Positions 12,619 through 35,157 of a DNA stretch of 64,000 nucleotides are shown one piece after another. How positions within the stretch are numbered: position 1 is the first letter of the stretch; the number at the start of each line of letters is the position of its first letter. Location of the stretch: assembly GCA_028824415.1 (NCBI GenBank), contig JAPPDX010000107.1, positions 522-64,521 on the forward strand. Direction: 5' to 3'. The translations under genes and the position numbers were made by a program. The notes beneath the pieces were generated by a model. It was given only the letters and a program-made list of their open reading frames with translations, did no database searches and was not told the origin of the DNA. The DNA is from a bacterium. GTDB lineage: Bacteria > Actinomycetota > Acidimicrobiia > Acidimicrobiales > CATQHL01.

Positions 12619-12636
12619 CGGGCGGGGAGCGGGGTC

Positions 12637-14634: not shown

Positions 14635-14644
14635 GCCGGCGCGG

Positions 14645-15896: not shown

Positions 15897-15924
15897 AGGT
15901 CCATCCAACCTGACGGTGGTTGTC

Positions 15925-16065
15925 ATGGTCGCCGCGGCGTGCAGCGACTCCGGCGAGGATCAGGCGGCGATCCTGACCGAGGACAGGCCCCGGCAACCGA
16001 ACCGGCAGGCGGTCGGCTTTGAACAGGGCGGGGATGTCAGGCCGGTGACGGTGCACAACCTCTGA
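15925..16065 (+). pseudogene. Decayed N-terminal fragment of a fourth lipoprotein paralog
   Basis: The 46-codon frame (V)VVMVAAACSDSGEDQAAILTEDRPRQP mirrors the paralog-3 N-terminus VLMIAAACSDDGESQVATLTDTKPPPP. It lacks a charged n-region and stops after 46 aa. Confidence 0.35.
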
Positions 16066-16164
16066 GGGGTTGCGCGGGCGTTCGATAGGGACGAACGCGG
16101 GAACCTTGCGGCGCTCTCGGGCGTCGGAACAGGTAGACAGGAAGCACCGAGCGGTATCGGAGGG

Positions 16165-17598: not shown

Positions 17599-17732
17599 TT
17601 CCCGGCCCGGCCGCGCACCTCGAACGCCGGAGCGTCGAGGAACCGTCGCCCCGGTCACCGGGCCGGATCGGGCGAGCCGTTAGGGTCGGATCGATGGGCT
17701 CGCGGGAAGCGGACCACACACGAAGGAGCAGG

Positions 17733-18986
17733 ATGGTGAGCAGACGAGACCGAGCGCCGATCTTCGCCGGCTGCCTAGTGGCGGTGCTGATGATCGCCGC
17801 CGCGTGCAGCGACGATGGTGAGAGCCAGGTGGCGACGCTCACGGACACCAAGCCCCCGCCCCCGGTCGAGACGACCGAGACGGTGTCTCCCCCGGCTGCT
17901 GAGCCATCCCCGCCCGCCGAGCCGCCACCGTCCGCCGATGGGACGTCGCCCGACGAGTCCCCGGCGGAGGCGCCACCGCCCGCGGATGCCCCTCCGGCGG
18001 CCGAACCACAGCCGATGCCTGACGGTGACCTCGACGGGGCGGCCGTGGCCGCGCTGGTCGCGGCGGCCGATGCCGCGCAATCGGGTGTGACCTCCTCGCG
18101 GGAGCAGCTGTACCTCACGATGGAGTTGAGCTTCGGCGGCCAGTCCATGGCGAGCGTGAGCGACATTCCCTACGCGCTCTCCACCAACGTGGGCGGTTTG
18201 ACGCACATCCTGATCGACCAGTCGGCACTCGCCGCTCTCAGTGCCCTCGAGGACGGGATGGGTTCGGCCGGCCCCGCCCAACTGCCACCGATCGAGGCCA
18301 TCGTCGACGAGAACGCGCGGCAGATCTACGTCAAGCTCTCGTCTCTGGAGGCGTTGGGACCGGGAGAGCGGCCGCCCGTCCTCGACGAGCTGATCGCCCA
18401 AGGCAACGATGTCGCCACCCTGTGGGGGAGACCCGGCCTCGACGGTACGAGCGACGAGATCCTGCCCGGGTTGGGCCCCGGGGCGAGACCCGCTCTCGGA
18501 CAGTTCCTCGGCCTCTTGAAGGCGGCGTCGGACACCGGGAGCGTCCTGGCGGCCCAGAGCGTCGGACCGGCCGAGACGGCCGGTGTCGCCACCCGGGAGT
18601 ACACCTTCGAGGTCGATCTCGCAGCGCTCATCGGCCAGTGGCCGCCCTTCCTGGAGAGCTTCCTCGCCGGCCCCGGTGGCGGTGAGCCCCCGCCGCCGGA
18701 GCTCTTCAACTCGCTGACCTCGCCTCTCCTGTCCAATGTCACTGCCCACTTCGACAGTGGTGGCCTTGCACGGCAGGTGGGGTTCGACCTCGATCTCGGA
18801 GCGCTCCTGATGGCCGCATTCGCCGGCTTCGGCGAGATGGCGGACGCTCCCGAGGGCGCCGAAATCGATTTCCCCGAGATCGAGTACCGCCTGGCGATGC
18901 GTGTCGAGGCTCTCGCGATCAACGACCCGTCACTGGCCGTGTCGCTGCCCGACCCGTCACAGGTTGTCGACGTTCCCTTCCCCTAG
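17733..18986 (+). CDS. Lipoprotein, paralog 3 (with ~65-aa Pro/Ala/Glu-rich tether)
   Basis: ATG 17733 preceded by AAGGAG. FAGCLVAVLMIAAAC|SD, then LDGAAVAALVAAADAAQSGVTSS, ATREYTFEVDLAALIG and DPSLAVSLPDPSQVVDV. Confidence 0.7.
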   Translation: MVSRRDRAPIFAGCLVAVLMIAAACSDDGESQVATLTDTKPPPPVETTETVSPPAAEPSPPAEPPPSADGTSPDESPAEAPPPADAPPAAEPQPMPDGDLDGAAVAALVAAADAAQSGVTSSREQLYLTMELSFGGQSMASVSDIPYALSTNVGGLTHILIDQSALAALSALEDGMGSAGPAQLPPIEAIVDENARQIYVKLSSLEALGPGERPPVLDELIAQGNDVATLWGRPGLDGTSDEILPGLGPGARPALGQFLGLLKAASDTGSVLAAQSVGPAETAGVATREYTFEVDLAALIGQWPPFLESFLAGPGGGEPPPPELFNSLTSPLLSNVTAHFDSGGLARQVGFDLDLGALLMAAFAGFGEMADAPEGAEIDFPEIEYRLAMRVEALAINDPSLAVSLPDPSQVVDVPFP

Positions 18987-18994
18987 TCTCCTGT

Positions 18995-19015
18995 GCTCGC
19001 CCTCTCCGGGCGAGC
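18995..19015 (+). terminator. Hairpin after lipoprotein paralog 3
   Basis: GCTCGCCC-tctcc-GGGCGAGC, a perfect 8-bp stem 9 nt after the stop. No clear U-tract. Confidence 0.4.
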
Positions 19016-19093
19016 CGGGAGGCCTCGCCCTAGTGTGCGCCCGGGACAAGGCATCCCGACTCAATGCAGGCGGCACATAGTGAGGTGAGCCCT

Positions 19094-20695
19094 ATGGCAC
19101 GGGTTCTTGTCGCAGAACGCATCTCATCGGCGGGCCTCGATTTGCTCCGCGACGGGGGCCACGAGGTGGACGTGCGCCTCGGTATGAGTCCCGAGGAGCT
19201 TCTCGGAGCCGTGGCCGGCGCGCGGGCGCTGGTCATCCGCTCAGCCACACAGGTCACCGCCGATGTGTTGGAGGCCGGCAAGGATCTCGTCGTGGTGGGC
19301 CGCGCCGGCGTCGGTCTCGACAATGTCGACCTCGACGCCGCCACCCGCCTCGGCGTGACGGTGGTTAACGCACCGCTGTCGAACGTGTTGTCGGCGGCCG
19401 AGCACACCGTCGCGCTGATCCTGTCGCAGGCCCGCAACATCCCCCAGGCGCACGCCGCGTTGGTAGCGGGGCGCTGGGAGCGGGCGCAGTGGGAGGGCAT
19501 CGAACTGGCGGGCAAGACCCTCGGCATCGTCGGGCTCGGCCGGGTCGGCCGCCTCGTGGCCGAGCGCGTGGCCGGATTCGCCATGCTCACGCTGGGGCAC
19601 GATCCCTACGTGTCGGTCGAGCAGGCCCGTGAGTTGCGTATCGAACTGGTGAGTCTCCCCGAGCTGATGGCTCGCAGCGACTTCGTGACGCTGCACGTCG
19701 CCAGGACGCCCGAGACGATCGGCCTCATCGGGGCGGATCTCCTGGCGGAGGCCAAGCCCGGCATCCGGATCGTGAACGTCGCCCGCGGCGGACTCGTGGA
19801 CGAGGAGGCGCTGGCAGGGGCCCTGCGGTCAGGCCGGGTGGCAGGTGCCGCGCTGGACGTCTTCGACGGCGAGCCAATCGATTCGTCGCCGCTGTTCGGA
19901 CTTCCCGGAGTGGTGGTCACGCCACACCTGGGGGCGAGCACGGCAGAGGCCCAGCACCGGGCCGGGGTGAACATCGCCGAGCAGGTGCGAGATGCTTTGG
20001 CAGGTGGGTTCGTGCCGTTCGCCGTCAACATCGAGGCGCGTCAGGCGCCCGACATTCTGCGGCCCTACCTGCCGCTCTGCGAGCACATGGGCGGGATGCT
20101 GGCCGAGATCGTCGGCGGGCTGCCCGAGGCGGTGGAGTTGGAGTTCTGGGGTCACATCGGTGATCACGACCCCTCCATCGCACGTCTGGCCGTGCTTCGG
20201 GGCCTCCTGGCCACGGCTCGCCGGACCAACGTCACTTACGTGAACGCTCCCTTGATGGCCGCCGAGTCAGGTCTGCGAACCGTCACTCACAGCCACGTGG
20301 CCCCTCGCGACTTCCTCAACGAGGTGGTCGTGCGGGGCGGGGGGACCGAGTTGGTCGGCACGCTGCTGGGGGTGCGCGGCGATCCGTACGTCGTCAAGGT
20401 CAACGGCCTGGCGATCAACGTGCGCCCGTCGCGACACATGGTCATGATCACCAACGAGGACCGGCCCGGCGTCGTCGGGGTGGTCGGGACGATTCTCGGC
20501 GCCGCCGGCGTCAACATCGCGGACATGGTGCTGGACCGCACGGGCGGTGCCAGCTCCACCTCGCTGATCATGTTCTCGACGGACCGCCACGTCACCGAGG
20601 CCGTGGCGCAGCAATTGCGTGAGGCGCCCGGCGTCCTGACGGTGACGGTGATCCGCCTCGACACGATCGGTCAGGCAGGAGCGTCGGCACGCTGA
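19094..20695 (+). CDS. serA: D-3-phosphoglycerate dehydrogenase (long form with ASB + ACT domains)
   Basis: Start at ATG 19094 (MARVLVAERIS). NAD motif GIVGLGRVGRLVA, catalytic HLGAST, and a C-terminal ACT-like HMVMITNEDRPGVVGVVGTILG. Confidence 0.9.
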   Translation: MARVLVAERISSAGLDLLRDGGHEVDVRLGMSPEELLGAVAGARALVIRSATQVTADVLEAGKDLVVVGRAGVGLDNVDLDAATRLGVTVVNAPLSNVLSAAEHTVALILSQARNIPQAHAALVAGRWERAQWEGIELAGKTLGIVGLGRVGRLVAERVAGFAMLTLGHDPYVSVEQARELRIELVSLPELMARSDFVTLHVARTPETIGLIGADLLAEAKPGIRIVNVARGGLVDEEALAGALRSGRVAGAALDVFDGEPIDSSPLFGLPGVVVTPHLGASTAEAQHRAGVNIAEQVRDALAGGFVPFAVNIEARQAPDILRPYLPLCEHMGGMLAEIVGGLPEAVELEFWGHIGDHDPSIARLAVLRGLLATARRTNVTYVNAPLMAAESGLRTVTHSHVAPRDFLNEVVVRGGGTELVGTLLGVRGDPYVVKVNGLAINVRPSRHMVMITNEDRPGVVGVVGTILGAAGVNIADMVLDRTGGASSTSLIMFSTDRHVTEAVAQQLREAPGVLTVTVIRLDTIGQAGASAR

Positions 20696-22926: not shown

Positions 22927-24528
22927 CTAGGAGTGCTCGTCGCGCAGCCGGCGCTTGAGGATCTTGCCCTGGGTGTCCTTGGGCAGCGCGCCGATGATGT
23001 GGACCGCCTTGGGGACCTTGTAGCCCGCCAGTGAGGCGCGGCAGTGATCGATGATCTCGGAAGGTTCGGGCGATCGTCCGGCCTTGGGGACGACGAAGGC
23101 AGTCACGGCCTCGGACCAGTAGTCGTCGGGCAGTCCCACCACGGCGACCTCCATGAGCGCATCGTGGCCGTAGAGGGCCCGTTCCACCTCGACCGACGAC
23201 ACGTTCATGCCGCCGGTCTTGATCATGTCCTTCTTGCGGTCGACAAAGAAGAGGTTGCCGTCGGCGTCGATGCGGACGATGTCCTCGGTGTGCAGCCAGC
23301 CGTCGCGGAACGTCTCGGCGGTGCGCTCGGCGTCATCGAGGTAGCCGATCATCACCGACGGTGAGCGGCAGATCAGCTCGCCCACCTCGGCGTCGACGCC
23401 GTCGTCGTCCACGACGCGGATCTCCAACTGGGGGACAGGTTTGCCGATCCAGGAGGCGTCACCGCCGGGAATGTCCCCCAGTGACGAGAACCACCCGACC
23501 GTTCCCAACTGGCTCAACTCCGACTGGCCCCAGTAGGTCCCCCACGTAATCCCGGGCGAGGCCTCCTGCCAAGCGGTGATCATGTGGGAGGGGACGGTGC
23601 CTCCGTAGGTGATGCAACGCTGCAGCGCCGTCAGGTCGGCGTCACCGAACCCGGGCTGGGTCGTCATCGCAAGGAAGAACGTGGGTGTTTGCGCCATGTA
23701 GGTGACCTTCTCCGCGGCGATGATCCGTATCGCCGCGCCCGGGTCGACGGTGTGGGCCAGAACGATCTTGGCGCCGCAGTTGATGATCGAAGTCATGCTG
23801 CCGAGGCCGGCGATCGTGAAGAAGGGCATCACGAAGAGCCACACGACCCCCGGACCGAGATCGAGTGCGAGCGTCCAGGCCGGCGTTGTCGAGATCAGAT
23901 AGTTGCGGTGCGAGATCAGGACGCCTTTCGGGAACGCCGTCGTGCCGCTCGTGTAGACGAGCATGGCGACGTCGTCCTCCTGCACATCGCAGTCCGGTTC
24001 GGCGCCGTCGCCCTCCGAGACCAGCGACGAGAAGGCCAGCCAACCCGCCGGCGGCTCGGCAGCGTCGGCGCTGCTGTGCACGAGGTGCTCGACGCCTTGG
24101 AGCGCACCCGCCTCTCTGGTTGCTTCGATCCTGTCGCAAAAGACGTCCTCGGCCATCAGGATGCGGGGCCGGGCATGGTTCACCTGGTAGCTGATCTCCG
24201 TCGCGGTGAAGGTGAAGTTCAGTCCTGTGAGCGCCGCGCCCAGCTTCAGGGTGGCGAACCAGATGGTCATGTAGTCGACGCTGTTGCGGGACATCACGGC
24301 GACGACGTCACCTCGCCGGACACCCAGGGCCGCCAGCGAGTTGGCCACCCGGTTCACCCGGACATTGAGGTCGTCGTAGGTCATGACCGACCGTGAGCCG
24401 TCCGGGCCGTAGTAGACGATCGCCTCCCTGTCGGGGTTGTGTTGCGCGTGACGTCGCAGCTGATCGCCGATTGTCGCTCGTCCCAGCATTCGGTGGCGAG
24501 CGGTCGCGCCAACGGTGAGATCGGTCAT
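22927..24528 (-). CDS. Acyl-CoA synthetase / AMP-dependent ligase
   Basis: AMP-binding motif LVYTSGTTAFPKGV; also TGGMNVSSVEVE and GKILKRRLR. Start at ATG 24528 (MTDLTVG) preceded by GGTGGAG. Confidence 0.85.
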   Translation of the reverse strand: MTDLTVGATARHRMLGRATIGDQLRRHAQHNPDREAIVYYGPDGSRSVMTYDDLNVRVNRVANSLAALGVRRGDVVAVMSRNSVDYMTIWFATLKLGAALTGLNFTFTATEISYQVNHARPRILMAEDVFCDRIEATREAGALQGVEHLVHSSADAAEPPAGWLAFSSLVSEGDGAEPDCDVQEDDVAMLVYTSGTTAFPKGVLISHRNYLISTTPAWTLALDLGPGVVWLFVMPFFTIAGLGSMTSIINCGAKIVLAHTVDPGAAIRIIAAEKVTYMAQTPTFFLAMTTQPGFGDADLTALQRCITYGGTVPSHMITAWQEASPGITWGTYWGQSELSQLGTVGWFSSLGDIPGGDASWIGKPVPQLEIRVVDDDGVDAEVGELICRSPSVMIGYLDDAERTAETFRDGWLHTEDIVRIDADGNLFFVDRKKDMIKTGGMNVSSVEVERALYGHDALMEVAVVGLPDDYWSEAVTAFVVPKAGRSPEPSEIIDHCRASLAGYKVPKAVHIIGALPKDTQGKILKRRLRDEHS

Positions 24529-24539
24529 TGCTCCACCCT

Positions 24540-24965
24540 TCATCCGTCCTCGGTCGGCGGCGTCGCGGCGGGTCCAGCGGAGGCGGGTGGGCTGGGGCCG
24601 CGCGTCAGCCGTCTCGCCGCGGCGACGATCTCTTCGAGCTTCGAGCCCGGGGGGAAGACCTCGACGCCCCGGGCCTCGAGCCGGCGCCGCACCCATGGCG
24701 GCACCACGCCGCCGGCGAAGACGGGCACGCCGGGCGCAGCAACGGTCAGATCGTCAAGGATGCGCTCGACCACCTCGACCCGACCGCCCACGTTCAGGCC
24801 GACAAGGTCCGCGTCCTCGTCGACGGTCGCCGAAACGATGTCTTCGCCGCGGGCCATCCCGAGCATGATCACCTCGAACCCTGCGTCACGCAAGGCCCGC
24901 GAGACCAGCAGAGTGCCGCGCCAGTGACCGTCGAGGCCGGTCTTGGCGATGATGATTCTGCTCAC
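24540..24965 (-). CDS. Acyl-CoA mutase small subunit (B12-binding domain)
   Basis: IIIAKTGLDGHWRGTLLVSRALRDAGFEV contains the DxHxxG base-off/His-on motif. GTG 24965 overlaps the large-subunit stop (GTGA). This is only the last 141 codons of ORF 24540..26423. Confidence 0.85.
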   Translation of the reverse strand: MSRIIIAKTGLDGHWRGTLLVSRALRDAGFEVIMLGMARGEDIVSATVDEDADLVGLNVGGRVEVVERILDDLTVAAPGVPVFAGGVVPPWVRRRLEARGVEVFPPGSKLEEIVAAARRLTRGPSPPASAGPAATPPTEDG

Positions 24966-26578
24966 GGCCGGATCGGCGGTTCCCAGTCGCCCCAGACCTC
25001 GCGGAACACGCCGCCGATCTCGCCCAGCGTGACGTCGGCGTCCACGGCCTGCATTACCGGGCCCATGACGTTGCCGTCGGACCGGCAGACCCGCTCCAGT
25101 TCGTGCAGCGCGCGGCGCGCGGCGACACCGTCGCGGGAGGATCGCACCTCGGCGAGGCGCCCCATGGCTTGATCCCAGGCGTCGGTCGTGCCCTGGAAGC
25201 CGTCGATCTCGAAGGGGGTCTCGTCGATCTGGTGGCAGTTGACACCGACGATCAGCCGGTCGTCGTTCTCGACCTCGTCCCACTGCTCGGACTGACGCCG
25301 CGCCGCGCGCCTGTGCAACCAGCCCGAGTCGAGGGCCTCGATGAACCCTCCCTGTCCTTCGATCTCGGCGAAGGACTCCCAGGCGCGGGCCTCCAGTTCC
25401 GACGTGAGGGCCTCCAGGTAGTAGGAGCCGCCGAGCGGGTCCGCGACCGCGTCGATGCCGGTCTCGTGCTGCAGGATCTGCTGGATTCGCACCGACATCT
25501 GGTGGGCGTGTTCGGAGGGGATCGACAGGGCCTCGTCGTAGCAGGCCACTCCCAGGGATTGGACGCCCCCCAGGACCGAGGCCAGCGCCATGATCGTCCC
25601 GCGGGCGATGTTGTTGAGCGGCTGCTGGTAGGTGAGCGCCGATCCGGCCGTGACGACGTGGATGCGGAGTTGGCGGGCCTTCTCGTCCCCGATGCCGTAG
25701 CGCTGCTCGAGGAGGTCGGACCACATCTTGCGTGCCGCGCGCAGCTTGGCGATGTCCTCGAAGAAGTCCATGCCGACACGGAAGTTGACTCCTCCCACCT
25801 TGTGGGAGAGCTCCTCGGGCCTGTAGCGGCCCCGGTCTGCGAGAGCGTCGAGGTACTCCACGGCGGTGGCGAACACGGTCGCCAACTCGTCCGGCGCGGA
25901 GAGCCCGCTGTCGGCACCGTTGTACCCGGCGATGGACACCGGTACCCAGCGGGGAAGGTTCTCCAGGCAGAACTCGGTGATGTCGTTGTTGAGGCGGAGA
26001 CCGGCCCGCGGGGGGATCTGCTGCTTGGTGATGCAGCCCACGTAGGTCAGGAAGAAGTCGCTCTGACCGGTACCCGCCAGCTGTCGCAGGTCGATGCCAC
26101 GACGCTTCGCCACGGTCCAGTAGCAGGCCAGGGCGAACGGGGCGTGCTGCACGACCGCTCCGCCCGGGTGGGTGTAGATCTCTTCGATCGGGATGCCCTC
26201 GAGGATCGTCTCGTAGTCGCGCACGCCGATGATGACCGCCCCTGTCAGCCCGACGTCCTCGCGGCGCGCCACCACTTCGGGATGGTCCACGTCGTAGAGG
26301 TGATCCGCGGTGTTGCGGTCGTGCTCCATGATGATGCCGCCCTCGCCCTGCCGGAGCAGGAACAGGAGGCGCTCGCGTTCGTCGGCAGGGTTGCCGAAGC
26401 CGCTGAGTTGGAAGATGCGCCACGGCTTCGTGCGGTACATCCCCTCGTAGGCACCGCGTACGAACGGGGCGCGTCCCGGGCCGGCCTCCAGCGCACCATG
26501 AACGGACTTGGGCACGTCGTCGGGCCCGTAGCAGCCCTTGATGGGGATACCCGAGGCGGTGAGGCGATCGTCGGTCAC
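24962..26578 (-). CDS. Methylmalonyl-CoA-mutase-family large subunit, divergent (substrate unknown)
   Basis: FVRGAYEGMYRTKPWRIFQLSGFG, GTGQSD, VSIAGYNGADSG and NIARGTIMALASVLGG align by eye to the MCM TIM-barrel. Substrate-contact positions differ (see findings). Confidence 0.85.
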   Translation of the reverse strand: MTDDRLTASGIPIKGCYGPDDVPKSVHGALEAGPGRAPFVRGAYEGMYRTKPWRIFQLSGFGNPADERERLLFLLRQGEGGIIMEHDRNTADHLYDVDHPEVVARREDVGLTGAVIIGVRDYETILEGIPIEEIYTHPGGAVVQHAPFALACYWTVAKRRGIDLRQLAGTGQSDFFLTYVGCITKQQIPPRAGLRLNNDITEFCLENLPRWVPVSIAGYNGADSGLSAPDELATVFATAVEYLDALADRGRYRPEELSHKVGGVNFRVGMDFFEDIAKLRAARKMWSDLLEQRYGIGDEKARQLRIHVVTAGSALTYQQPLNNIARGTIMALASVLGGVQSLGVACYDEALSIPSEHAHQMSVRIQQILQHETGIDAVADPLGGSYYLEALTSELEARAWESFAEIEGQGGFIEALDSGWLHRRAARRQSEQWDEVENDDRLIVGVNCHQIDETPFEIDGFQGTTDAWDQAMGRLAEVRSSRDGVAARRALHELERVCRSDGNVMGPVMQAVDADVTLGEIGGVFREVWGDWEPPIRP

Positions 26579-26598
26579 GTCGTCGTCCCTCGCGGCTC

Positions 26599-27525
26599 TC
26601 AGGTGTTCGGCACCGCTATTTCACCGGACGGGAAGGCAACCACCGACCCGAAGTCACCCGGACCGATCATCGTGGGCGACGTGTTGGCCAGCATGAGCAG
26701 GCCTCCGGTGCGCTCGATGGCGAAGTCCTCAAGCCTCTCGCCGGTGGCGGGACAGTCCAGCCGTGCCACCCATCCTGCCTCGATCGGCTGCCCTACCTCG
26801 GCGGTCGGGTAGCGGGACGTCAATACGCCGACCTGCGACGGCATGTAGAGGCTCACGTCCCCGTCGATGAGCGGGACGGTGCGCGGCCCAGTCGACCTTC
26901 CATCCAGTTGACCTCGGTAGCGCAGCACGTTGAGGCAGCCTTCCACACCGACGCTCGGGTCGCCCAGAGCACCCCCACCAAACTCCACGAGAGCGGCGGT
27001 GCCCCCGGCGTCCGCGATCGCCTTGCAGAGTTGGCCGGGCTGGGCGAAGTTGCAGACCACGGGCGTGTAGCCGAAGGATGCCGTGAACTCGGGGTTCCCG
27101 TAGTCGTAGGAGTACCAGAGGGCCATCGTGGGCGTTCCCGAGTGCAGGTCCACCACGCAGTCGGTCAGATCGGTGAGTGTGCCGATGAGGGTAGCGGCGA
27201 CCTGGTTGGTCAGGAATCCCCCCGGCGCGCCGGGAAACACCCTGTTGAGGTAGAGGTGGTCGGGGCTGACCCGGGTGCCCACCTCGAGTGCCGGCGGGTT
27301 GGCGGCGGGACAGAGCACGACGGTGCCGGCGAGATCCTCCGATGCCTCGATCCGCCGGAGCAGGCCCCAGAGGGCCATGACGCCAAGCGGCTTGTCGCCG
27401 AAGATCCCCGACACGAAGGCCGTCGTCGGCCCCGGGCGCGAGCCTTTGACCTCGATGAAGCGGAGGTGCCAGGGCTGACCGTCAGCTCGGCGGCCGACTT
27501 CCACAGTCCAGGTGCGAACGCTCAT
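26599..27525 (-). CDS. Succinylglutamate desuccinylase/aspartoacylase (AstE/AspA)-family protein, atypical
   Basis: Start at ATG 27525 (MSVRTWTVEV) overlaps the upstream stop (ATGA). Family-like TAFVSGIFGDKPLG and CVVDLHSGT. The usual HGxE reads FGDK here. Confidence 0.7.
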   Translation of the reverse strand: MSVRTWTVEVGRRADGQPWHLRFIEVKGSRPGPTTAFVSGIFGDKPLGVMALWGLLRRIEASEDLAGTVVLCPAANPPALEVGTRVSPDHLYLNRVFPGAPGGFLTNQVAATLIGTLTDLTDCVVDLHSGTPTMALWYSYDYGNPEFTASFGYTPVVCNFAQPGQLCKAIADAGGTAALVEFGGGALGDPSVGVEGCLNVLRYRGQLDGRSTGPRTVPLIDGDVSLYMPSQVGVLTSRYPTAEVGQPIEAGWVARLDCPATGERLEDFAIERTGGLLMLANTSPTMIGPGDFGSVVAFPSGEIAVPNT

Positions 27526-28547
27526 CGCCCGCTCTGCAGCCGCGGGATCACCGAGTCGCCGATGGCCCCGATGGCATCGAGGGTGGCCTCGAGCGACGGT
27601 CCCTGGAAGTGGCGCAGGCGCAGCAGCATCTCCTCGGGGTTGAGAGTGTCCTGCCACTCCTGCAACTGCTCCAGCCACGTCTCGGTCGATCCGCACAGCA
27701 CGCGGTCGGGCAGCACGTGGCCGAGTTGCAGATCGGCGGCGCTTCCCACCTCGGCCAGCCACGGATCGAAACGCTCGTCGTAGGCGTTGCCGCGCTCGAA
27801 GTACACCCGGGAGTAGCCCAGCACATGGGGGCCGTACGTGGCGCGGGCCGCCTCGTCGGTCTCGTCCAGCCAGGCCTCCCGGAAGAGCACGATCCGCGGC
27901 TCCTTGCCGGCGGCGGCGCACTCGGCGCGGTAGACGTCGGCGAGGTGGCTGACCCAGCGCCCGCTGCGTATGGGATCGGTGATCCATCCGTCGGCCATGC
28001 GTGCGGCGCGGCGCACGCCGGGCACGCTCCAGGCCCCGATGAAAACCTCCAGATTGTCCGGACCGAGTGCGGGATCCCTGCGGGGCACAGTGCCCTGCCA
28101 GGGTTCGGGGACTTCGATGAGGCGGCCCGACCGGAAGGCCTCGATGACCTCCATCCCCACGTCCATTCGCCGCTTCCGCTCGTCGAGCCCCACACCGAAC
28201 GGTTCGAAATCACCGCTGAAGTAGCCGACTCCGGTGGTGAGGCGGAAGCGCCCCGGGTACAGGGCATCCAGCACGGAGGCGTCCTCGGCCACCGTCACCG
28301 GATGGTGAACGGGCAGGACGGTGACGCAGGTGCCGAACATCATCCGGTTCGTCGCGGCGAGCCCGCGTGCGCAGAGCAGCATCGGGCTGGTCGTGTAGGT
28401 GGTGTCGCCGGAGTGTTTCTCGCCCGTGTAGGCGCCGTACCAGCCGGCGGTCTCCGCGGTGCGGCACTCGCTCAGGAATCCGTCGATATCGAGGCGGCGT
28501 TCGCCGCCTTCGAGCTTCTGGACGGCGGGGGCGATGCTGAACCTCAT
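27522..28547 (-). CDS. Luciferase-like (LLM-class) flavin-dependent oxidoreductase
   Basis: Start at ATG 28547 (MRFSIAPAVQ). Also GWYGAYTGEKHS, FGTCVTVLPVHHPVTVAEDASVLDALYPGRFRLTTGVGY. Confidence 0.8.
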   Translation of the reverse strand: MRFSIAPAVQKLEGGERRLDIDGFLSECRTAETAGWYGAYTGEKHSGDTTYTTSPMLLCARGLAATNRMMFGTCVTVLPVHHPVTVAEDASVLDALYPGRFRLTTGVGYFSGDFEPFGVGLDERKRRMDVGMEVIEAFRSGRLIEVPEPWQGTVPRRDPALGPDNLEVFIGAWSVPGVRRAARMADGWITDPIRSGRWVSHLADVYRAECAAAGKEPRIVLFREAWLDETDEAARATYGPHVLGYSRVYFERGNAYDERFDPWLAEVGSAADLQLGHVLPDRVLCGSTETWLEQLQEWQDTLNPEEMLLRLRHFQGPSLEATLDAIGAIGDSVIPRLQSGR

Positions 28548-28573
28548 TGTCGGTGCCTGTTGTCTGGAGGCTC

Positions 28574-29281
28574 TCAGACGGTCCAGTTCGTGGCGTTGAG
28601 CAGCGTGGCGCTTAGCGAGGCGATGTTGTAGGTGAGGTTCGAGACGTCCGAGCCGAGCGCCTCGCGGTAGCGGTCGGCGACGGCATCGGGTGCACCGTCT
28701 TCGATCGCCTCGTCCACGGTCGCCCACTCGGTGAGGACGATCCAGTCCGGCTGGGACGACGGGAAGAGCGGGTGCTTGCCGTTCTGGCGCCCGACGCGTC
28801 CGGCGATGAACCCGGGGCGGTCGGTCTGGCGCAACCCCTCCGAAGCGCGGTACCAGGACAGGAACCGGTCCTCGGCGACTCCGGCTACGTCGAGGCGCAG
28901 CGTGGACACGACCGGCGAGGTGACCGCCCCGCGCCGCGACGGGCGGTCACCGGGGGAGAGGGCGGCCTCGGGAACACCGACGGTCTGTACCTGCGCATAG
29001 GTCGTGTTCGAGTGGTTGCTGATCTTGTGAAGCACTTCGTTCACCAATTGCGTGTCCCTGCGGCGCACGTCGACGTACGGCTCGGAGGAGAAGATCTGCA
29101 GGTCGGGAACCTCGTAGACGTTGCAGATGAGCGGTCCGCCGACGACGGAGTGGTAGGCGTTGCAGCTGTGGAATCCGGTGTCAATGAGGTCCGGGCCGTG
29201 ACGCGTGTCGTACCACTTGACGAACTCGCCGAGGTAGTCGTCCTCGACGTCCATCCGTACGACATAGAGCAGGGGAAGCAC
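28574..29281 (-). CDS. Hypothetical protein with internal duplication (two ABM/Dabb-like ferredoxin-fold halves, tentative)
   Basis: YVVRMDVEDDYLGEFVKWYDTRHGPDLIDTGF resembles STLRLDVAGVAEDRFLSWYRASEGLRQTDRPGF. It is the first gene of the minus-strand operon. Confidence 0.5.
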   Translation of the reverse strand: MLPLLYVVRMDVEDDYLGEFVKWYDTRHGPDLIDTGFHSCNAYHSVVGGPLICNVYEVPDLQIFSSEPYVDVRRRDTQLVNEVLHKISNHSNTTYAQVQTVGVPEAALSPGDRPSRRGAVTSPVVSTLRLDVAGVAEDRFLSWYRASEGLRQTDRPGFIAGRVGRQNGKHPLFPSSQPDWIVLTEWATVDEAIEDGAPDAVADRYREALGSDVSNLTYNIASLSATLLNATNWTV

Positions 29282-29407: not shown

Positions 29408-30916
29408 ATGCGAATCATGCGGCGCCAACACTGGTTCAAGGTGCTCGGAGTCTCGCTGGCGGTCGCGCTCGCGGCGGCGGCCTGCGGAGGCACCGACGAC
29501 GACACGACTGCGGCGATCGACGCGGCGAGCAGCGCCGCGTCCGGTGCCAGCGCCACCGCCGGCTCCGCACTGGCCGCGGCCGGCGATGCATCGGCATCGG
29601 CGGACGTGGCGTTGGCGGCGGCCCAGGAGGCGCAGGCCGCAGCCGAGTTGGCGCAGGCCACGGCATCGGGCAACCAGGCGGCGGTGGCCGCGGCGGAGGA
29701 GGCACTCGCCGAGGCCCAGGCGACGGCTGAGGCGGCACGCGCGGACGCTGCTGCCGCACAGGAGGAGGCCGACGAGGCGCGCGCCGCAGCCGCCGAGGCG
29801 GCCGAGGCGGCCGAGGCGGTCCAGTCCCAGCCGACCGAGGACCCGATCGTGGGCGAAGCCCGGCGGATCACCGAGGCGGCGCTCGCCGGCATGGTCACGT
29901 CGCTGAAGGAGACGGGCAACACTCCCTCTGACGTCATGGGGCTGACGACCTGGGGCGGTCCCTCTTCCACCCCGACACCGCCGAGCGGGGTCAGCATCGT
30001 CACCATCCCGTGCGCACCCGTGCCGCCGTGCTCCACCGTCAGCGACTTCGTGGACATGGTTGCTGCCGAGTTGGGTTGGGAGCACGAGATGATTGCCGGC
30101 CTGGGGACGCCGGAGAGCTACGTCGAGGCGTTCGACAACGCCATCGCCAAGGGCCCCGACGTGATCCTGGGTGCGGCCGCTCCGGGCGCACTCGTCGGCG
30201 ACCGGCTCGATCTAGCCGCCGACGCCGGGATCATCACGATCTCACTGGCCGACCTCCCCGAGCCCGATCCCGACGCCCTCGCGGCCTACGACGCCTACGT
30301 GTCGCTGCGGAGTCCCCTGCTCGGCGCGCTGCAGGCGTTCGCGGTGATTGCCGACTCGGGCGGCACCGCCAACGTGAGCATGATCCGGGATGCCACGTTC
30401 CCGACCCTGGCCGCCACCGCCGACGAGGTGGAGCAGATCATGGCGCAGTGTGCCGGCTGCTCGCTGCACATCCAGGACTGGCTGATCACCGATGCATTCG
30501 ATCCCGCCGCCGTGGACGGCATCATCAGCGGCATCCTCGCCCAGAACCCCGATGTCGAGTACCTGATCATGCCGTACTCGCTCGGTGACACAGCCGTCAT
30601 CGAGTCGCTGCGCACAGCGGGGCGCTCCGACGTGAAGGTCCTGCACAAGGATCCCAATGACGAGGGTCTCACGAACGTGATCAACGGCGGCGCCTGGCTG
30701 ACAGCAGCCTCGTCACTGGAGTGGCTGGCCTGGGCCGGCATCGACCAGGCCATCCGCGGCCTGGTCGGCGCGCCGTACCTCGGTGCCCTGGATCTCGGTA
30801 TTGGTGTGCTGCTGTTCGACGCCGACAACGCGCCGAGCGACCTCGACCAGGATCAGCGATTCGCCGACGCCGTCGACTTCCGTGCCGAGTACCGGGCGCT
30901 CTGGGGCATCGGCTAG
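29408..30916 (+). CDS. ABC substrate-binding lipoprotein (sugar/PBP-type-1-like) with Ala-rich N-terminal extension
   Basis: VSLAVALAAAAC|GG lipobox, a ~105-aa Ala/Glu/Gln-rich segment, then a binding-protein domain. Paralogous to 36367..38037 (both end ..YRALWGIG / ..FLARWGLG). Confidence 0.75.
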   Translation: MRIMRRQHWFKVLGVSLAVALAAAACGGTDDDTTAAIDAASSAASGASATAGSALAAAGDASASADVALAAAQEAQAAAELAQATASGNQAAVAAAEEALAEAQATAEAARADAAAAQEEADEARAAAAEAAEAAEAVQSQPTEDPIVGEARRITEAALAGMVTSLKETGNTPSDVMGLTTWGGPSSTPTPPSGVSIVTIPCAPVPPCSTVSDFVDMVAAELGWEHEMIAGLGTPESYVEAFDNAIAKGPDVILGAAAPGALVGDRLDLAADAGIITISLADLPEPDPDALAAYDAYVSLRSPLLGALQAFAVIADSGGTANVSMIRDATFPTLAATADEVEQIMAQCAGCSLHIQDWLITDAFDPAAVDGIISGILAQNPDVEYLIMPYSLGDTAVIESLRTAGRSDVKVLHKDPNDEGLTNVINGGAWLTAASSLEWLAWAGIDQAIRGLVGAPYLGALDLGIGVLLFDADNAPSDLDQDQRFADAVDFRAEYRALWGIG

Positions 30917-30935: not shown

Positions 30936-32450
30936 GTGACCGCGACAGGACGGGGCTCGGAGGAGAACCGGCCTGTCGCGGCCCGCTTCAGCGGCGTCAC
31001 CAAGGTGTACGGCGGCACCGTCGCGCTCGCCGAGGTGGACTTCGAGGTCTGCGCCGGCGAGATCCACGGGCTTCTCGGCGAGAACGGCGCCGGGAAGTCC
31101 ACGCTGGTCAAGATCGCCGCCGGCGTGGAGACTCCCGATACCGGGACTGTGGAACTGTTCGGCGAGGTTCTCCCAACGGGTTTCGGTCCCGAGGCGGTTG
31201 CGAGGCGCGGCTGCGCCTTCATCCACCAGCAGCACGGCCTCGTGGGTGCACTGACCGTCGCGGAGAATGTGGCGCTCACAGCCGGCTTCCCTCGCCGCGG
31301 TGGCCGCATCGACCGCGCCGAGCTCCGGGCCCGGGCCGCCAGCGCGCTGGCGCGTATGGGTGTCGAGCTCGACGTAGACACCGAGGTCGCCGATCTGCCG
31401 ATCGCCCTGCGGGCACAGGTGGCGATCGCCAGGGCGGTCGCCATGGACGCCAGGCTGCTGGTGCTGGACGAGCCGACCGCGAGCCTGCACGTCGGCGCTG
31501 TACGCGAGCTGTTCTCGATCCTGCGGCGGCTGCGGTCCGAGGGCGTCGCCATCGTGTTGATCACCCACCGCATCGACGAGGTGATGGGTATCTGCGACAG
31601 GGTCAGTGTCATCCGCGACGGCAGGGCGGTGGCCACGAGAGACATCGCCGGCATCTCGGAGTCCGAGCTGGTGACCCTGATCGTCGGTCGCGAGGTGGCA
31701 CCTGTGGCGGTCGAGACGCTCGCAGCGGCGCGTACCGACCGCTTGACGCTGCGTGACCTGGAGGGCGCCGGGTTCGGACCGCTGTCGCTCTCGGTACGGG
31801 AAGGCGAGATGGTGGCGATCACGGGTCTGGCCGACTCGGGGCACCACGCACTGGGACGCACGCTCTTCGGTCTGGAGCCCGTCACCGGCGGGTCGATGGA
31901 GGTTGCCGGACGAACGATCGAGCCGAGCGATCCTGTGGAGGCGATGGCCGCCGGCATCGCCTACGTACCCGCTGACCGCGTCGAGGAGGGAGCGGCCACA
32001 GAGTTGACGCTTCGGGAGAACATCTTCATGAATCCCGACGGGCCGTCGCTGAGGCGGATACGCGGCCGAGCCGAGAGAGGTCGTTCGCAGTCGCTGCTCG
32101 AGCGCTTCGACGTCCGCCCGGCCGAGCCCGAAGCCGAGCTCTCGACACTCTCGGGCGGTAACGCGCAGAAGGTCGTCATCGCAAAGTGGCTGCGGATCCA
32201 GCCCCGCCTGCTGATCCTCGTGGAACCGACGGGTGCGGTGGACGTGGGGGCCCGCGCCGAGATCTACACCAAGATCCGGGCAGTGCTGCGCGAGGGAACG
32301 AGCGTCCTCCTGATCAGCTCGGACTTCGAGGAGATCGCGCAGGTCGCCGATCGTGTGGTGGTGCTGCACCGCGGCCGCCTGATCGAGTCGATTTCCCGCC
32401 AGGACCTCACCGAGGACGCAATCAGCAGCGCGGTCTACCGGGCCGCATGA
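30936..32450 (+). CDS. Sugar-type ABC ATP-binding protein, duplicated ATPase (RbsA/MglA-like)
   Basis: Two ABC halves: GENGAGKSTL ... LVLDEPTASL, and a second half LSGGNAQKVVIAKWL ... LILVEPTGAVDVGA. GTG 30936 chosen as start. Confidence 0.9.
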   Translation: MTATGRGSEENRPVAARFSGVTKVYGGTVALAEVDFEVCAGEIHGLLGENGAGKSTLVKIAAGVETPDTGTVELFGEVLPTGFGPEAVARRGCAFIHQQHGLVGALTVAENVALTAGFPRRGGRIDRAELRARAASALARMGVELDVDTEVADLPIALRAQVAIARAVAMDARLLVLDEPTASLHVGAVRELFSILRRLRSEGVAIVLITHRIDEVMGICDRVSVIRDGRAVATRDIAGISESELVTLIVGREVAPVAVETLAAARTDRLTLRDLEGAGFGPLSLSVREGEMVAITGLADSGHHALGRTLFGLEPVTGGSMEVAGRTIEPSDPVEAMAAGIAYVPADRVEEGAATELTLRENIFMNPDGPSLRRIRGRAERGRSQSLLERFDVRPAEPEAELSTLSGGNAQKVVIAKWLRIQPRLLILVEPTGAVDVGARAEIYTKIRAVLREGTSVLLISSDFEEIAQVADRVVVLHRGRLIESISRQDLTEDAISSAVYRAA

Positions 32451-32495: not shown

Positions 32496-33587
32496 ATGAG
32501 TTCGTCCCGCGCTGAGGGTGGCGCCCCGCAGGCGGCGGAGAGCCGCAGCGCCGAGCTGGCGTCGCTGCTGTCGGGCTACGTGGGACGGTACGGCATACCC
32601 CTGCTGCTCGTCGCCGAGCTGATCCTGTTCTCGCTGCTGCGCCCCGAGAGCTTCGCCACCATCAACAACTTCAGGGCGATCCTGGACCGCGAGACGGTGC
32701 TGGTTCTGCTGGCGTTCGCGGCGATGATGCCCCTGATCGTGGGCGAGTTCGACCTGTCGGTGGCATCGAACCTGTCGATCGCGCAACTCCTTGTGGTCGG
32801 CTTCGCCGTGAACCAGACGCTCCCGGCGTGGGCGGCGCTGGTCTGCACGCTCGGTGTCGGCATGTTCATCGGCCTCGTCAACGGCGTCGCCGTCGTGAAG
32901 CTGCGAGTGCCGAGCATCGTCGCCACCCTGGCCACCGGCACGATCCTGGAGGGACTCTCGCTGCGCTATTCCTCGCGGACGATCCTCGGCGCGCCCGATC
33001 CGTTGACGACGGTGTTCCGCAAGCGGATCTTCGAGGGCGTCTCCGGCGGGCTGCCCCTGACGGTCGTCTACGCCCTCGTGATCGCCCTCGTCGTGTGGTT
33101 CGTACTCGGCGGCATGCCCACCGGTCGGCGCATGTACGCCGTCGGCGGGAACCGGCGGGCCGCCGAACTCAGCGGGATCCGCTCCGACCGCATGGTGATG
33201 GGGACGTTCGTGGTGGCCGGACTGCTGGCCGCCGCGGGTGGCGCAATGCTGGGCGGGCGCATCGGCACGGGGACGCCGAGCACGGGTCTGACCCTGCTCA
33301 TCCCGGCCTTTGCCGCCGTCTTCCTGGGTGCCACCACGATCCGCCCCGGGCGCTACAACGTCTGGGGGGCGGTGCTGGCGGTCTACACCATCGAGGTGGC
33401 CATCTCGGGCCTGCAGCAGGTGGGTGTCGGCAAGTGGATCGAGAAGGTGGTGGAGGGCGGTGCGCTCCTGGGCGCCATCGCCCTGTCGGGATGGGCGCTG
33501 CGGCTGCGCGCCCGCAAGGCGCGCGAGCGGGAGTTGGCGATCCTCGCCCGAACCGAGGAGAAGGAGACCGGAACCGATGGAGTGTGA
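32496..33587 (+). CDS. Sugar-type ABC permease (RbsC/branched-chain-type BPD_transp_2)
   Basis: About 9 hydrophobic segments, YAVGGNRRAAELSGI motif, and position within the ABC operon. Confidence 0.9.
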   Translation: MSSSRAEGGAPQAAESRSAELASLLSGYVGRYGIPLLLVAELILFSLLRPESFATINNFRAILDRETVLVLLAFAAMMPLIVGEFDLSVASNLSIAQLLVVGFAVNQTLPAWAALVCTLGVGMFIGLVNGVAVVKLRVPSIVATLATGTILEGLSLRYSSRTILGAPDPLTTVFRKRIFEGVSGGLPLTVVYALVIALVVWFVLGGMPTGRRMYAVGGNRRAAELSGIRSDRMVMGTFVVAGLLAAAGGAMLGGRIGTGTPSTGLTLLIPAFAAVFLGATTIRPGRYNVWGAVLAVYTIEVAISGLQQVGVGKWIEKVVEGGALLGAIALSGWALRLRARKARERELAILARTEEKETGTDGV

Positions 33588-35157
33588 CTACCTGATCGTC
33601 GGTGCCGGCGCCGCCGGGTGCGTGCTGGCCAATCGCCTGTCAGCCGATCCGTCCAACCGGGTCCTGCTGGTGGAGGCGGGCGGCAGTGACTTGGTCGACG
33701 ACGTGCAGATGCCGTTCGGCCAGCGCAACGTGGTCGGCAATCCGGCGACCGATTGGTGCTTCATGGCCGAACCCGACGCCACCCGCGACGGCCGGGTCGA
33801 TATGTGGCCGGTCGGCAAGGTCCTGGGCGGGGGGACGTCCATCAACGGCCTCGTCTGGATTCGCGGCCAGCGCCGGGACTACGACGGGTGGGCCGAGTTG
33901 GGGGCGACCGGCTGGGACTACGAGTCGCTCCTGCCGTACTTCCGGCGCAGCGAGTCCTTCGAGGGGGGAGCCGACGGGTACCGGGGCGGCGACGGGCCTG
34001 TCAGCGTGTCGCGCCTGCGCACCCCGCACGAACTCGTGGATGTGTTCGTGGACGCAGGCGTCGAGGCGGGCTTTCGGGCCAATGCCGATCCCAACGGGGC
34101 AGACCCGGAGGGCTTCGCGCCGGTGCAGACCAACCAGCGGGAGGGCCGGCGGGAGACCATGGCCCGGGCGTACCTGGCGCCGGTGCTGGATCGCCCCAAC
34201 CTCGATGTCCGCACCGGCATCGAGGTCGAACGTCTGCTCCTGGAGGGGGAGCGCTGCGCAGGTGTGGTGACCTCCGGTGGCGAATTGCGGGCGTCGCGGG
34301 AGGTCGTGTTGTCGGCCGGGGCGATCATGTCGCCGAAGCTGCTGATGCTGTCGGGCATCGGGCCCCGATCCGAGATCGCGGGGTTGGGCATCGACGTGGT
34401 CGTGGATGCCGAGGGGGTCGGCCGGGACCTCCAGGAGCATCCGATCACCTTCGTGAGCTTCTTCGTCAACGTACCGACGCTCAACACGATGCTGCTGGGC
34501 GATCCGGACGGCTGCACCGAGGAGTGGCGCCGCGCGGGCACAGGCGCCATGACCTCCCCGGTGGCGCAGGGGTACGCCTTCTTCCGCAGCGACCCATCGC
34601 TGGACCGGCCGGACCTCCAGTTCCACTTCACGCCCATCGGCTTCGATTTCGGGCCGGACGGCTTGGCGCTGCACGAGCGGCCGGCCTGCATGATCGCCGC
34701 CAACCTGTGCCGGCCGAACGCTCGCGGCAGCGTCACCCTGCGCTCGGCCGATCCCGGCGACCCACCCCGGATCTCGCATGAACTGATGGGTGATGCCGAC
34801 GATGTGGCGCGCCTGGCGAAGGGGTGCGAGATCGCCCAGCGCGTCTTCGAGGCCGAGGCGTTCGCCCCCTACCTCACCGAGCAGCAATTGCCGCCCGCCC
34901 CACCCGATTCTGCCGAGGAGTGGGCGGCGTACGCGCGGGCCACCGCCGGCCTCGCCTATCACCCCAGCGGCACCTGCCGGATGGGCGGCGACGACGGCGC
35001 CGTCGTGGATCCGTCGCTACGCGTCCGCGGTGTCGACGGTCTCCGGGTGGTCGATGCCTCGGTCATGCCCCGTATCGTGAGCGCCAACACCAACGCCACG
35101 GTGGTAGCCATCGGCGAGAGGGCTGCGGACCTGATCCTCGCCGGCGACGACACGTAG
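33577..35157 (+). CDS. GMC-family FAD oxidoreductase (choline-dehydrogenase-like; possible MftG-type)
   Basis: CDYLIVGAGAAGCVLANRLSADPSNRVLLVEAGG, GKVLGGGTSINGLVWIRG, and C-terminal YHPSGTCRMG ... VVDASVMP. The ATG overlaps the permease 3' end by 11 nt. Confidence 0.9.
   Translation: MECDYLIVGAGAAGCVLANRLSADPSNRVLLVEAGGSDLVDDVQMPFGQRNVVGNPATDWCFMAEPDATRDGRVDMWPVGKVLGGGTSINGLVWIRGQRRDYDGWAELGATGWDYESLLPYFRRSESFEGGADGYRGGDGPVSVSRLRTPHELVDVFVDAGVEAGFRANADPNGADPEGFAPVQTNQREGRRETMARAYLAPVLDRPNLDVRTGIEVERLLLEGERCAGVVTSGGELRASREVVLSAGAIMSPKLLMLSGIGPRSEIAGLGIDVVVDAEGVGRDLQEHPITFVSFFVNVPTLNTMLLGDPDGCTEEWRRAGTGAMTSPVAQGYAFFRSDPSLDRPDLQFHFTPIGFDFGPDGLALHERPACMIAANLCRPNARGSVTLRSADPGDPPRISHELMGDADDVARLAKGCEIAQRVFEAEAFAPYLTEQQLPPAPPDSAEEWAAYARATAGLAYHPSGTCRMGGDDGAVVDPSLRVRGVDGLRVVDASVMPRIVSANTNATVVAIGERAADLILAGDDT

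Follow-up and report, generated by a model that had tools for sequence, protein, structure and literature searches.

Which compound is handled by an operon that combines a divergent adenosylcobalamin (AdoCbl)-dependent acyl-CoA mutase and an acyl-CoA ligase with three further proteins? The question is raised by six genes at positions 22927–29281 of a 64,000-nt stretch of Acidimicrobiales DNA (lineage CATQHL01; assembly GCA_028824415.1, contig JAPPDX010000107.1, positions 522–64,521 of the forward strand), which was analysed as a whole and is called the window here. We conclude that these genes are probably the core of a catabolic island of ~22.9–43.6 kb, which would serve the breakdown of a polar amide-containing compound whose acid needs a 1,2-shift before beta-oxidation. 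The substrate is not nameable from sequence.

The known specificities of acyl-CoA mutases are a handful, namely methylmalonyl, isobutyryl, ethylmalonyl, 2-hydroxyisobutyryl, pivalyl, and arylsuccinyl. Every addition to this list has brought with it a catabolic pathway and a biocatalytic means of making branched or linear acids. The clade described here is a testable candidate, with a non-canonical signature that includes a Cys in the radical active site and the loss of the His of methylmalonyl-CoA mutase (MCM).

Operon layout and mutase clade

The window has a G+C content of ~69%. Genes were called with a GC3-based caller together with a list of open reading frames (ORFs), which in combination place six consecutive genes on the minus strand. 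Their number, strand, and coordinates had been given in an earlier sequence-only reading of this DNA and are borne out:

28574–29281, minus strand: gene A, tandem ABM-fold (dimeric alpha+beta barrel) protein, 235 aa; AF2 model and Foldseek
27522–28547, minus strand: gene B, luciferase-like (LLM) flavin/deazaflavin oxidoreductase, 341 aa; PF00296, 138 bits
26599–27525, minus strand: gene C, AstE/AspA-like protein, 308 aa; PF24827, E 2e-16, 60.6 bits against a cutoff of 25
24962–26578, minus strand: gene D (mutL), mutase large subunit, 538 aa; PF01642 over the full length
24540–24965, minus strand: gene E (mutS), B12-binding mutase small subunit, 141 aa; PF02310, and TIGR00640 above cutoff
22927–24528, minus strand: gene F, AMP-forming acyl-CoA ligase, 533 aa; PF00501 and PF13193

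Pfam and NCBIfam identify five of the six products, and gene A, the exception, was assigned from its AF2 model and a Foldseek search; the identities proposed earlier proved right. The genes are tightly packed. A gap of 26 nt separates A from B as read from the sequence, B and C share an ATGA overlap (27522–27525), the stop codon of the AstE-like gene lies 20 nt from the mutL start, and the GTG start of mutS lies on the mutL stop codon (GTGA, 24962–24965). The last junction is either an 11-nt gap or an ATGA overlap, the latter if the ligase starts at the alternative position 24543, which overlaps the mutS stop codon. These overlaps and short gaps agree with those noted before. The six-gene order, flanks included, is kept in ten related Acidimicrobiales metagenome-assembled genomes (MAGs) with 83–96% protein identity. 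A MeaB/ArgK Pfam domain was found neither among the 42 window genes scanned with Pfam nor in the 12 loci of relatives with Pfam-annotated gene calls, which matches the earlier remark that a MeaB-type chaperone is missing. A cobalamin riboswitch was not detected in the window at the Rfam gathering threshold.

Because mutL matches PF01642 (MM_CoA_mutase) along its whole length (E 2.4e-140, profile positions 2–512 of 512), the B12-binding subunit carries the DxHxxG motif (DGHWRG, residues 12–17), and 63 residues invariant in MCM and 2-hydroxyisobutyryl-CoA mutase (HCM) are kept in the clade, including the equivalents of Gln197 and Tyr243, the pair looks like a competent AdoCbl acyl-CoA mutase whose class of specificity is uncharacterised. 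The best PDB match of mutL is HcmA (4R3U, 292 bits); MCMs score 228–256 bits and IcmF chains 112 bits. Its identity is 36.5% to HcmA, 34.5% to human MCM, and 33.2% to P. shermanii MCM, whereas HcmA and human MCM are 45.8% identical over the same columns. The mutase had been called divergent, and these values (33–37% against 46%) justify the word.

The specificity residues were mapped via HMMER alignments, with the register checked against the Y89F entry 5REQ and tagged HcmA offsets; the assignment of Cys182 follows a gap-free register from the QxD motif. The signature residues of mutL are L58, E85-H86, Q172, C182, and Y219-N220, and the aligned positions are:

MCM Tyr89: Ile90 in HcmA, Leu58 in the window
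MCM Ala116-Phe117: Asp117-Phe in HcmA, Glu85-His86 in the window
MCM Arg207: Gln208 in HcmA, Cys182 in the window
MCM Tyr243-His244: Tyr-His in HcmA, Tyr219-Asn220 in the window
MCM Gln330: Gln in HcmA, Val309 in the window

Glu85, His86, Cys182, and Asn220 are invariant in 120 homologues with 63–93% overall identity, and position 58 is Leu in 115 of them and Ile in five. At 29 positions, MCM and HCM share a residue and the clade has a different one that is at least 95% conserved; the change of HTN to GVA is among them. Isobutyryl-CoA mutase (ICM) and IcmF have Phe and Gln at the Tyr89 and Arg207 positions, where mutL has Leu and Cys.

The clade forms one 50%-identity cluster (P0276, 773 bits) in an exhaustive HMMER search of 1.84 billion representatives. 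Its sister clusters are P0277 at 50% identity (Desulfobacterales) and P0278 at 43%, and beyond these three the matches fall to at most 380 bits and 40% identity. Among the best 150 representatives, the MCM-type signature Y-A-R-H occurs in 45 and L-E-C-N in this clade only; other types, such as I-V-C-N, L-V-L-N, and V-D-M-H, are unnamed. According to this census, much of the diversity of acyl-CoA mutases seems to be untapped, and the present clade would be one of many unnamed subfamilies. A close plasmid-borne relative of mutL was not found among 72,556 plasmids with tblastn (best identity, 38%). Judged by its sequence against MCM, HcmA, and IcmF as references, mutL is outside both MCM and HCM and belongs to a discrete, conserved clade. 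The earlier proposal hinged on the large subunit not lying inside a characterised clade with matching specificity residues, and for MCM and HCM it does not.

That the operon encodes an ordinary split MCM for propionate or branched-chain amino acids, with its flanking genes there by chance, is highly improbable. Database names for such proteins read 'methylmalonyl-CoA mutase N-terminal domain/subunit', leuA and serA-like genes adjoin the operon, and mutL exceeds the cutoff of TIGR00641 (392.7 against 303.8 bits). However, the MCM carboxylate pair Tyr89/Arg207 is replaced by Leu58/Cys182 in at least ~95% of the 120 homologues, with Cys182 invariant, and the score against the NCBIfam MCM equivalog NF006944 is 348.1 bits, below the cutoff of 876. 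Moreover, the Y-A-R-H signatures form a separate population in the census, and the accessory genes described below are linked to the clade in seven lineages. The IcmF equivalog NF045497 also remains below its cutoff (119.8 against 1500 bits). An ethylmalonyl-CoA mutase is unlikely because the ethylmalonyl carboxylate should need the Arg.

Another candidate is a third type of HCM or a near analogue of it, an enzyme like HcmAB or RcmAB that works with a ligase and gives a 3-hydroxy- or 3-aminoacyl-CoA, the analogue substrates being 2-hydroxy-2-methylbutyryl-, lactyl-, or 2-aminoisobutyryl-CoA. We regard it as unlikely, but it ranks first among the alternatives. Kurteva-Yaneva et al. reportedly identified Ile90 and Asp117 as the specificity residues of HcmA in 2015, with Asp117 holding the substrate hydroxyl. 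The HCM-type set Ile90/Asp117/Gln208 is replaced by Leu/Glu/Cys in mutL, and the changes at these two HCM-defining positions, Ile90 to Leu and Asp117 to Glu, are conservative; HCM-like chemistry may be compatible with them. HcmA is also the best-scoring solved relative, and the layout of mutase and ligase is the same. Against this stand the identity of 36.5%, which is below that between HcmA and human MCM, the replacement of Gln208 by Cys and of His by Asn, the loss of HTN, and a ligase that is not HCL-like. The best PDB match of the ligase is FadD5 (229 bits), and the 2-hydroxyisobutyric acid (2-HIBA)-CoA ligase is absent from its PDB matches at E≤1e-40; its sequence is that of a FadD5-like, seemingly generic acyl-CoA ligase.

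Accessory proteins and their recurrence beside the mutase

Besides mutase and ligase, the operon encodes three further proteins. Gene A has no match in Pfam, NCBIfam, or PDB sequences. In its AF2 model (31 homologues, pLDDT 93.6), two ferredoxin-like beta-alpha-beta units with a repeated E-H-E-E order build a pseudo-dimeric barrel, which bears out the earlier term 'duplicated ABM-like'. Foldseek relates the model with a probability of 1.0 to 2pgc, 5f9p (anthrone-oxidase-like), 3mcs, and PenE, and also matches it to sulfur oxygenase reductase (SOR). The family, ABM2, is small (78 homologue clusters, all 233–237 aa), and His28, Cys40, His44, Cys53, Lys169, and His170 are invariant in it, with His90 conserved in at least 90%.

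The LLM family is likewise small (~65 clusters at ≥47% identity). Its window member stays below the cutoffs of all NCBIfam subfamilies, the best being F420_Rv2161c (90 against 167 bits). In a Foldseek search with the AF2 model (pLDDT 93), FMN-dependent luciferase-type monooxygenases and RutA came out on top, with F420-G6PD close behind; FMN and F420 as cofactors were not separated by structure prediction and fold search. A deazaflavin-dependent step is suggested by one relative (L085), in which translational coupling links the accessory genes to the F420/FO genes cofC and fbiC, the latter in fused form. At this locus (3437–7975), cofC and fbiC directly precede and overlap the series amidase–LLM–AstE–ABM2–ALDH (aldehyde dehydrogenase), and TonB receptors suggest a Gram-negative, proteobacterial host. 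The sequence-only reading had the acid 'first oxygenated'; an LLM enzyme is indeed present, but oxygenation is unproven and the signals for FMN and F420 conflict.

In the AstE-like protein, the HGDE of the deacylases has become FGDK (G-I-F-G-D-K-P), and two of the three zinc ligands are gone in comparison with 3na6 and DoeB (6twl), to which the protein can be aligned from end to end. The window protein shares this change with all 23 homologues examined, where F/L/I/W and K replace H-x-x-E, in support of the earlier description of the protein as atypical. The subfamily retains the third His (DLHSG), the Arg of LNR, and the Glu of EFGGG. The protein is probably not a canonical zinc deacylase.

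We scanned one genome per GTDB species for the mutase clade and recorded the neighbourhoods within 10 kb (loci are labelled L001 and so on). The scan yielded 75 loci from MAGs of Actinomycetota, Chloroflexota, and Pseudomonadota, with identities of 59–95%. Acidimicrobiales/Acidimicrobiia hosts include many that are sponge-derived (SB, APA, and RHO bins, Candidatus Spongiisocius), and other hosts belong to Ilumatobacteraceae, Thermoleophilia, Nitriliruptorales, Pseudonocardiaceae, and Chloroflexota, as well as to Alpha-, Beta-, Gamma-, and 'Delta'-proteobacteria. The window itself comes from a sponge-type Acidimicrobiales lineage, and L036 is 95% identical. The mutL–mutS pair is universal in the clade, and in about half of the loci the gene next after mutS is a ligase orthologue (43–69% identity).

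Genes for an amidase, LLM, AstE-like protein, ABM2, and ALDH, in some cases with a cytochrome P450 or M20 gene, lie within 10 kb of the clade mutase in at least seven lineages and at least five gene orders. We refer to this set as the cassette. A neighbourhood analysis had been proposed in the earlier reading, and it reveals the cassette beside the mutase in the window lineage and in those below, L005 and L006 counting separately:

L005 (Thermoleophilia) and L006: LLM–AstE–mutL–mutS–ligase–amidase–ABM2
L020, L030, and L075: mutL–mutS–ligase–P450–LLM–AstE–solute-binding protein–amidase–LLM
L039, L069, and L082 (Ilumatobacteraceae): ABM2/ALDH on the opposite strand, then amidase–AstE–mutL–mutS–ligase
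L059, L064, and L066 (Spongiisocius-type): AstE, LLM, ABM2, acyl-CoA dehydrogenase (ACAD), then M20–mutL–mutS–ligase
L086: amidase–LLM–LLM–AstE, then P450–PQQ-dependent alcohol dehydrogenase (PQQ-ADH)–ligase–TetR, adjoining a clade mutase of 65% identity

The L086 ligase is 28% identical to that of the window and 63% identical to that of L084, which looks like a non-orthologous displacement inside a conserved system. With gene A and the LLM as queries, three proteobacterial loci (L084, L085, and L087) were also found, with the order TonB receptor–amidase–LLM–AstE–ABM2–ALDH–MFS–P450–PQQ-ADH.

Other contexts of the mutase comprise TetR with a ligase and a nitroreductase, a thiamine pyrophosphate (TPP) enzyme with a class-III aminotransferase, and the mutase pair alone. 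A minimal order, mutL–mutS–TetR–ligase, with or without nitroreductase, FadB, thiolase, and ACAD, is seen in L001, L022, L031, L070, and L071. Genes of beta-oxidation recur beside the mutase, encoding short-chain dehydrogenase/reductase (SDR), enoyl-CoA hydratase, ACAD, FadB, and thiolase.

A sub-branch of 16 loci in Acidimicrobiia (L041–L055, L061, L078–L081; ~10001–19400) has mutL, mutS, an acetolactate synthase (ALS)-like TPP enzyme, and an omega-transaminase, followed by a distant ligase, LLM, DUF35, and SCP2-thiolase; an amino-acid permease, GltB-like and GATase proteins, and a methyltransferase are encoded upstream. PDB comparison of these 16 loci identified the TPP enzyme as ALS/BbmA-like and the aminotransferase as an omega-transaminase; assignments as 2-hydroxyacyl-CoA lyase and dialkylglycine decarboxylase were considered, and neither was clear. 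The clade mutase of the gammaproteobacterial locus L002 (13450–19380) adjoins genes for nitrile hydratase subunits, an enoyl-CoA hydratase, and an amidase, the last of which shares only 29% identity with the amidase of the window.

These neighbourhoods bear in both directions on an HCM-like enzyme. SDR and 3-hydroxyacyl-CoA dehydrogenase are the commonest neighbours (23 loci), the nitrile hydratase and amidase of L002 fit a route from cyanohydrin via 2-hydroxyisobutyramide to 2-HIBA, and the ALS-like TPP enzyme after the mutase in 16 loci recalls the acetone cluster of Desulfococcus (PMC7888143). However, the recurring ACAD neighbours suggest a saturated product, and the locus lacks meaH and a GntR regulator, both of which are usual in hcm/rcm clusters (PMC7176365).

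The wider island and the proposed pathway

Since amidase and ALDH genes recur beside the mutase in relatives, we searched the window beyond 22927–29281. The functional unit exceeds the six genes: an amidase and an ALDH are encoded at 40741–43606, and importers and alcohol oxidoreductases lie between. The operon of the sequence-only reading is real, but as a unit it was drawn too small, because the amidase and ALDH at 40.7–43.6 kb belong to it. The added genes are:

29408–30916, plus strand: lipoprotein, probable solute-binding protein of the next ABC importer; lipobox LAAAAC, Ala/Glu-rich linker
30936–32450, plus strand: ABC ATPase with two ABC domains; Pfam
32496–33587, plus strand: BPD_transp_2 permease; Pfam
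33577–35157, plus strand: GMC oxidoreductase (choline-dehydrogenase/MftG-like); PF00732 and PF05199, NCBIfam below cutoffs
35166–36293, plus strand: NDMA-dependent (mycofactocin-type) Zn alcohol dehydrogenase (ADH); TIGR03989, 441.6 bits against a cutoff of 440
36367–37368, minus strand: binding protein of a second, CUT2-type ABC system; Pfam
38181–39125, plus strand: permease of the second CUT2-type system; Pfam
39155–40687, plus strand: ATPase of the second CUT2-type system; Pfam
40741–42168, plus strand: ALDH; PF00171
42194–43606, plus strand: amidase-signature enzyme, NylA-like; PF01425, 327.7 bits, GGSSGG at residue 147

The lipoprotein gene is divergent from the operon, and its product has no Pfam match; in L037, a homologue (42%) and an ABC ATPase are encoded upstream of a clade mutase. 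The GMC oxidoreductase is 43% identical to a GMC protein whose gene directly precedes an ABM2 homologue in L083. The ALDH is 46–51% identical to the cassette-adjacent ALDHs in L039, L069, L082, L084, and L085. The best PDB match of the amidase is the 6-aminohexanoate-cyclic-dimer hydrolase NylA (311 bits, E 1e-91), and its identity to the cassette or operon amidases of L006, L020, L030, L075, L084, L085, and L086 is 61–66%.

In the pathway that we consider probable, the compound would be taken up by the CUT2-type ABC importers (step 1), and the GMC oxidoreductase, the NDMA-type ADH, and the ALDH, or P450 and PQQ-ADH in relatives, would turn an alcohol or methyl group into a carboxylate (step 2). 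The NylA-like amidase would then cleave the amide, with the LLM, AstE-like, and tandem-ABM proteins taking part in as yet unassigned roles (step 3). The dedicated ligase would form the CoA thioester of the freed acid (step 4), and the AdoCbl mutase would shift a thioester carbon by a 1,2-rearrangement, turning a branched acyl-CoA with a tertiary or quaternary alpha-carbon into a linear one open to beta-oxidation (step 5). We infer in what sequence the steps occur, that they run in the catabolic direction, and what kind of substrate is involved. A polar-substituted, non-dicarboxylic substrate is suggested by the aliphatic residue at the Tyr89 position, the lack of a carboxylate-binding Arg, and the invariant Glu-His at the Asp117 site of HCM. 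The combination of P450, ADH, and ALDH with ligase and mutase would fit a methyl group on a quaternary carbon that is converted to a thioester in need of a mutase.

More tentatively, and with somewhat less than even confidence, we suggest that the clade performs an undescribed B12 rearrangement of hydroxy-, amino-, or carboxy-substituted acyl-CoA esters whose alpha-carbon is tertiary or quaternary, as the key reaction in a rare but widespread pathway for an amide-linked natural compound, and that the accessory enzymes bring new chemistry. Candidate esters would be of the hydroxypivalyl-, dimethylmalyl-, or 2-aminoisobutyryl-CoA type, and the active site would have exchanged Arg/Gln for Cys and the catalytic His for Asn. 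The cassette, with three proteins of no assignable reaction, suggests that sponge symbionts and bacteria of fresh water, soil, and groundwater use an environmental substrate that has so far gone unrecognised. A literature search found no publication that describes the clade or this combination of genes, and the earlier reading had likewise recognised no described pathway in it.

Several known compounds were considered as substrates, and each fits only part of the gene set: pantothenate or pantoate, 2-aminoisobutyrate peptides, N-epsilon-2-hydroxyisobutyryl-lysine, lactams or cyclic dipeptides, N-acylethanolamines, macrocyclic hydroxamate siderophores, camphor-like terpenoids, and methylerythritol.

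The following points weigh against the proposed pathway. About two thirds of the clade loci are without the cassette, and the many other contexts of the mutase would be explained if its substrate were a common small acid fed by several routes. In the proteobacterial loci L084, L085, and L087, no mutase lies within 10 kb of the cassette. His244 of MCM assists the rearrangement, and its replacement by Asn together with the loss of HTN means that the chemistry may differ from that of classical acyl-CoA mutases. It is also possible that the AstE-like protein has no catalytic activity. Neither clade nor cassette has a characterised member or an isolate, as all 75 loci are from MAGs. We infer a single transcript for the six genes from their spacing alone; promoter-like sites were not found, and terminator-like sites were no more frequent than in shuffled controls.

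The first two of these points also suit a different explanation, namely that the mutase–ligase pair and the LLM/AstE-like/ABM2/amidase cassette are independent modules that share islands and act on different compounds. The cassette occurs with P450, PQQ-ADH, and ALDH where no mutase lies within 10 kb, and its families (~70 clusters) are much smaller than the mutase clade. However, the modules are translationally coupled in the window (20 nt), L005, and L006, and their association survives at least five rearrangements and crosses phyla; in L086, the ligase is from another family and the mutase from the same clade. We rank this explanation, which seems improbable, below an HCM-like enzyme and above an ordinary MCM, the least likely of the three.

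Other features of the window were recorded beside the island. Signs of mycofactocin are the NDMA-dependent ADH, the MftG-like GMC protein, and a mycofactocin-coupled SDR (45451–46227; TIGR04504, 335 bits against a cutoff of 250). A 598-aa ORF on the minus strand (43752–45548), missed by the gene caller, looks by eye like a GT2 glycosyltransferase and is possibly mftF. A CobW/COG0523 GTPase (1212–2174), a FecCD permease, Peripla_BP_2, and ABC ATPase (2368–5282), and a Fur-family regulator (5629–6072) make up what appears to be a metal or corrinoid uptake cluster at 1212–6072. Three consecutive plus-strand genes (14832–18986; 354, 408, and 323 aa) upstream of the serA-like gene have no Pfam match. 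Two minus-strand paralogues with Beta_propel (PF09826), 1390 and 744 aa long (46277–50449 and 52269–54503), flank a cation-efflux gene and an EamA transporter gene. The region 54000–60000 has a G+C content of 0.63–0.65 directly after a tRNA gene (54768–54841) and few confident genes, with a TetR gene (56023–56724) and a gene for an unknown protein (57315–57815) called; either an integrated element or sequence decay may explain this.

Comparison with known systems

The HcmAB–Hcl–MeaH system of Aquincola tertiaricarbonis (4R3U) shares with the window an AdoCbl mutase split into large and small subunits and a dedicated ligase directly linked to it. In HcmA and mutL alike, the Tyr89 position is aliphatic and the Asp117 position acidic, which suggests a non-carboxylated, polar-substituted branched acyl-CoA. 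In contrast to that system, the window has neither MeaH nor GntR, its ligase is not HCL-like, and Asn replaces the His after Tyr243; conversely, hcm clusters lack the LLM, AstE-like, ABM2, and amidase genes of the window (PMC7176365). The likeness to hcmAB and hcl put forward in the sequence-only reading therefore extends to the layout, whereas membership in the HCM system fails on residues, ligase, and meaH.

MCM (P. shermanii 1REQ, human 2XIJ) and the window mutase have in common the fold, the domain organisation, Gln197 and Tyr243, and the His-on motif DxHxxG. They differ in that MCM is a fused protein and the window mutase is split, and in the changes of Tyr89 to Leu, Arg207 to Cys, and His244 to Asn. 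Going by these residues and profiles, the window mutase fails every HCM, MCM, and ICM feature tested and is a member of the acyl-CoA mutase superfamily.

Acetone activation in Desulfococcus biacutus and Desulfosarcina cetonica involves a thiamine diphosphate (TDP) enzyme, a B12 mutase, and an SDR (PMC7888143). The 16-locus sub-branch of the clade resembles this cluster: mutL and mutS are directly followed by an ALS-like TPP enzyme, and SDR genes are found nearby. However, the window has no TPP enzyme, and its hosts are aerobic actinobacteria rather than sulfate reducers. The mutase of the acetone cluster has been described as RcmAB-like (PMC7176365), and its likeness to the clade rests on gene layout.

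NylA (3A2P) is the closest solved relative of the island amidase and shares GGSSGG with it, whereas the nyl gene context is unrelated to mutase, LLM, or ABM2. The deacylases DoeB, AstE, and aspartoacylase (6TWL, 3NA6) share with the AstE-like protein the PF24827 fold, the third His, the substrate Arg, and the general-base Glu, and they differ in keeping the H-x-x-E zinc ligands where the AstE-like subfamily of the window has F/L/I/W and K throughout.

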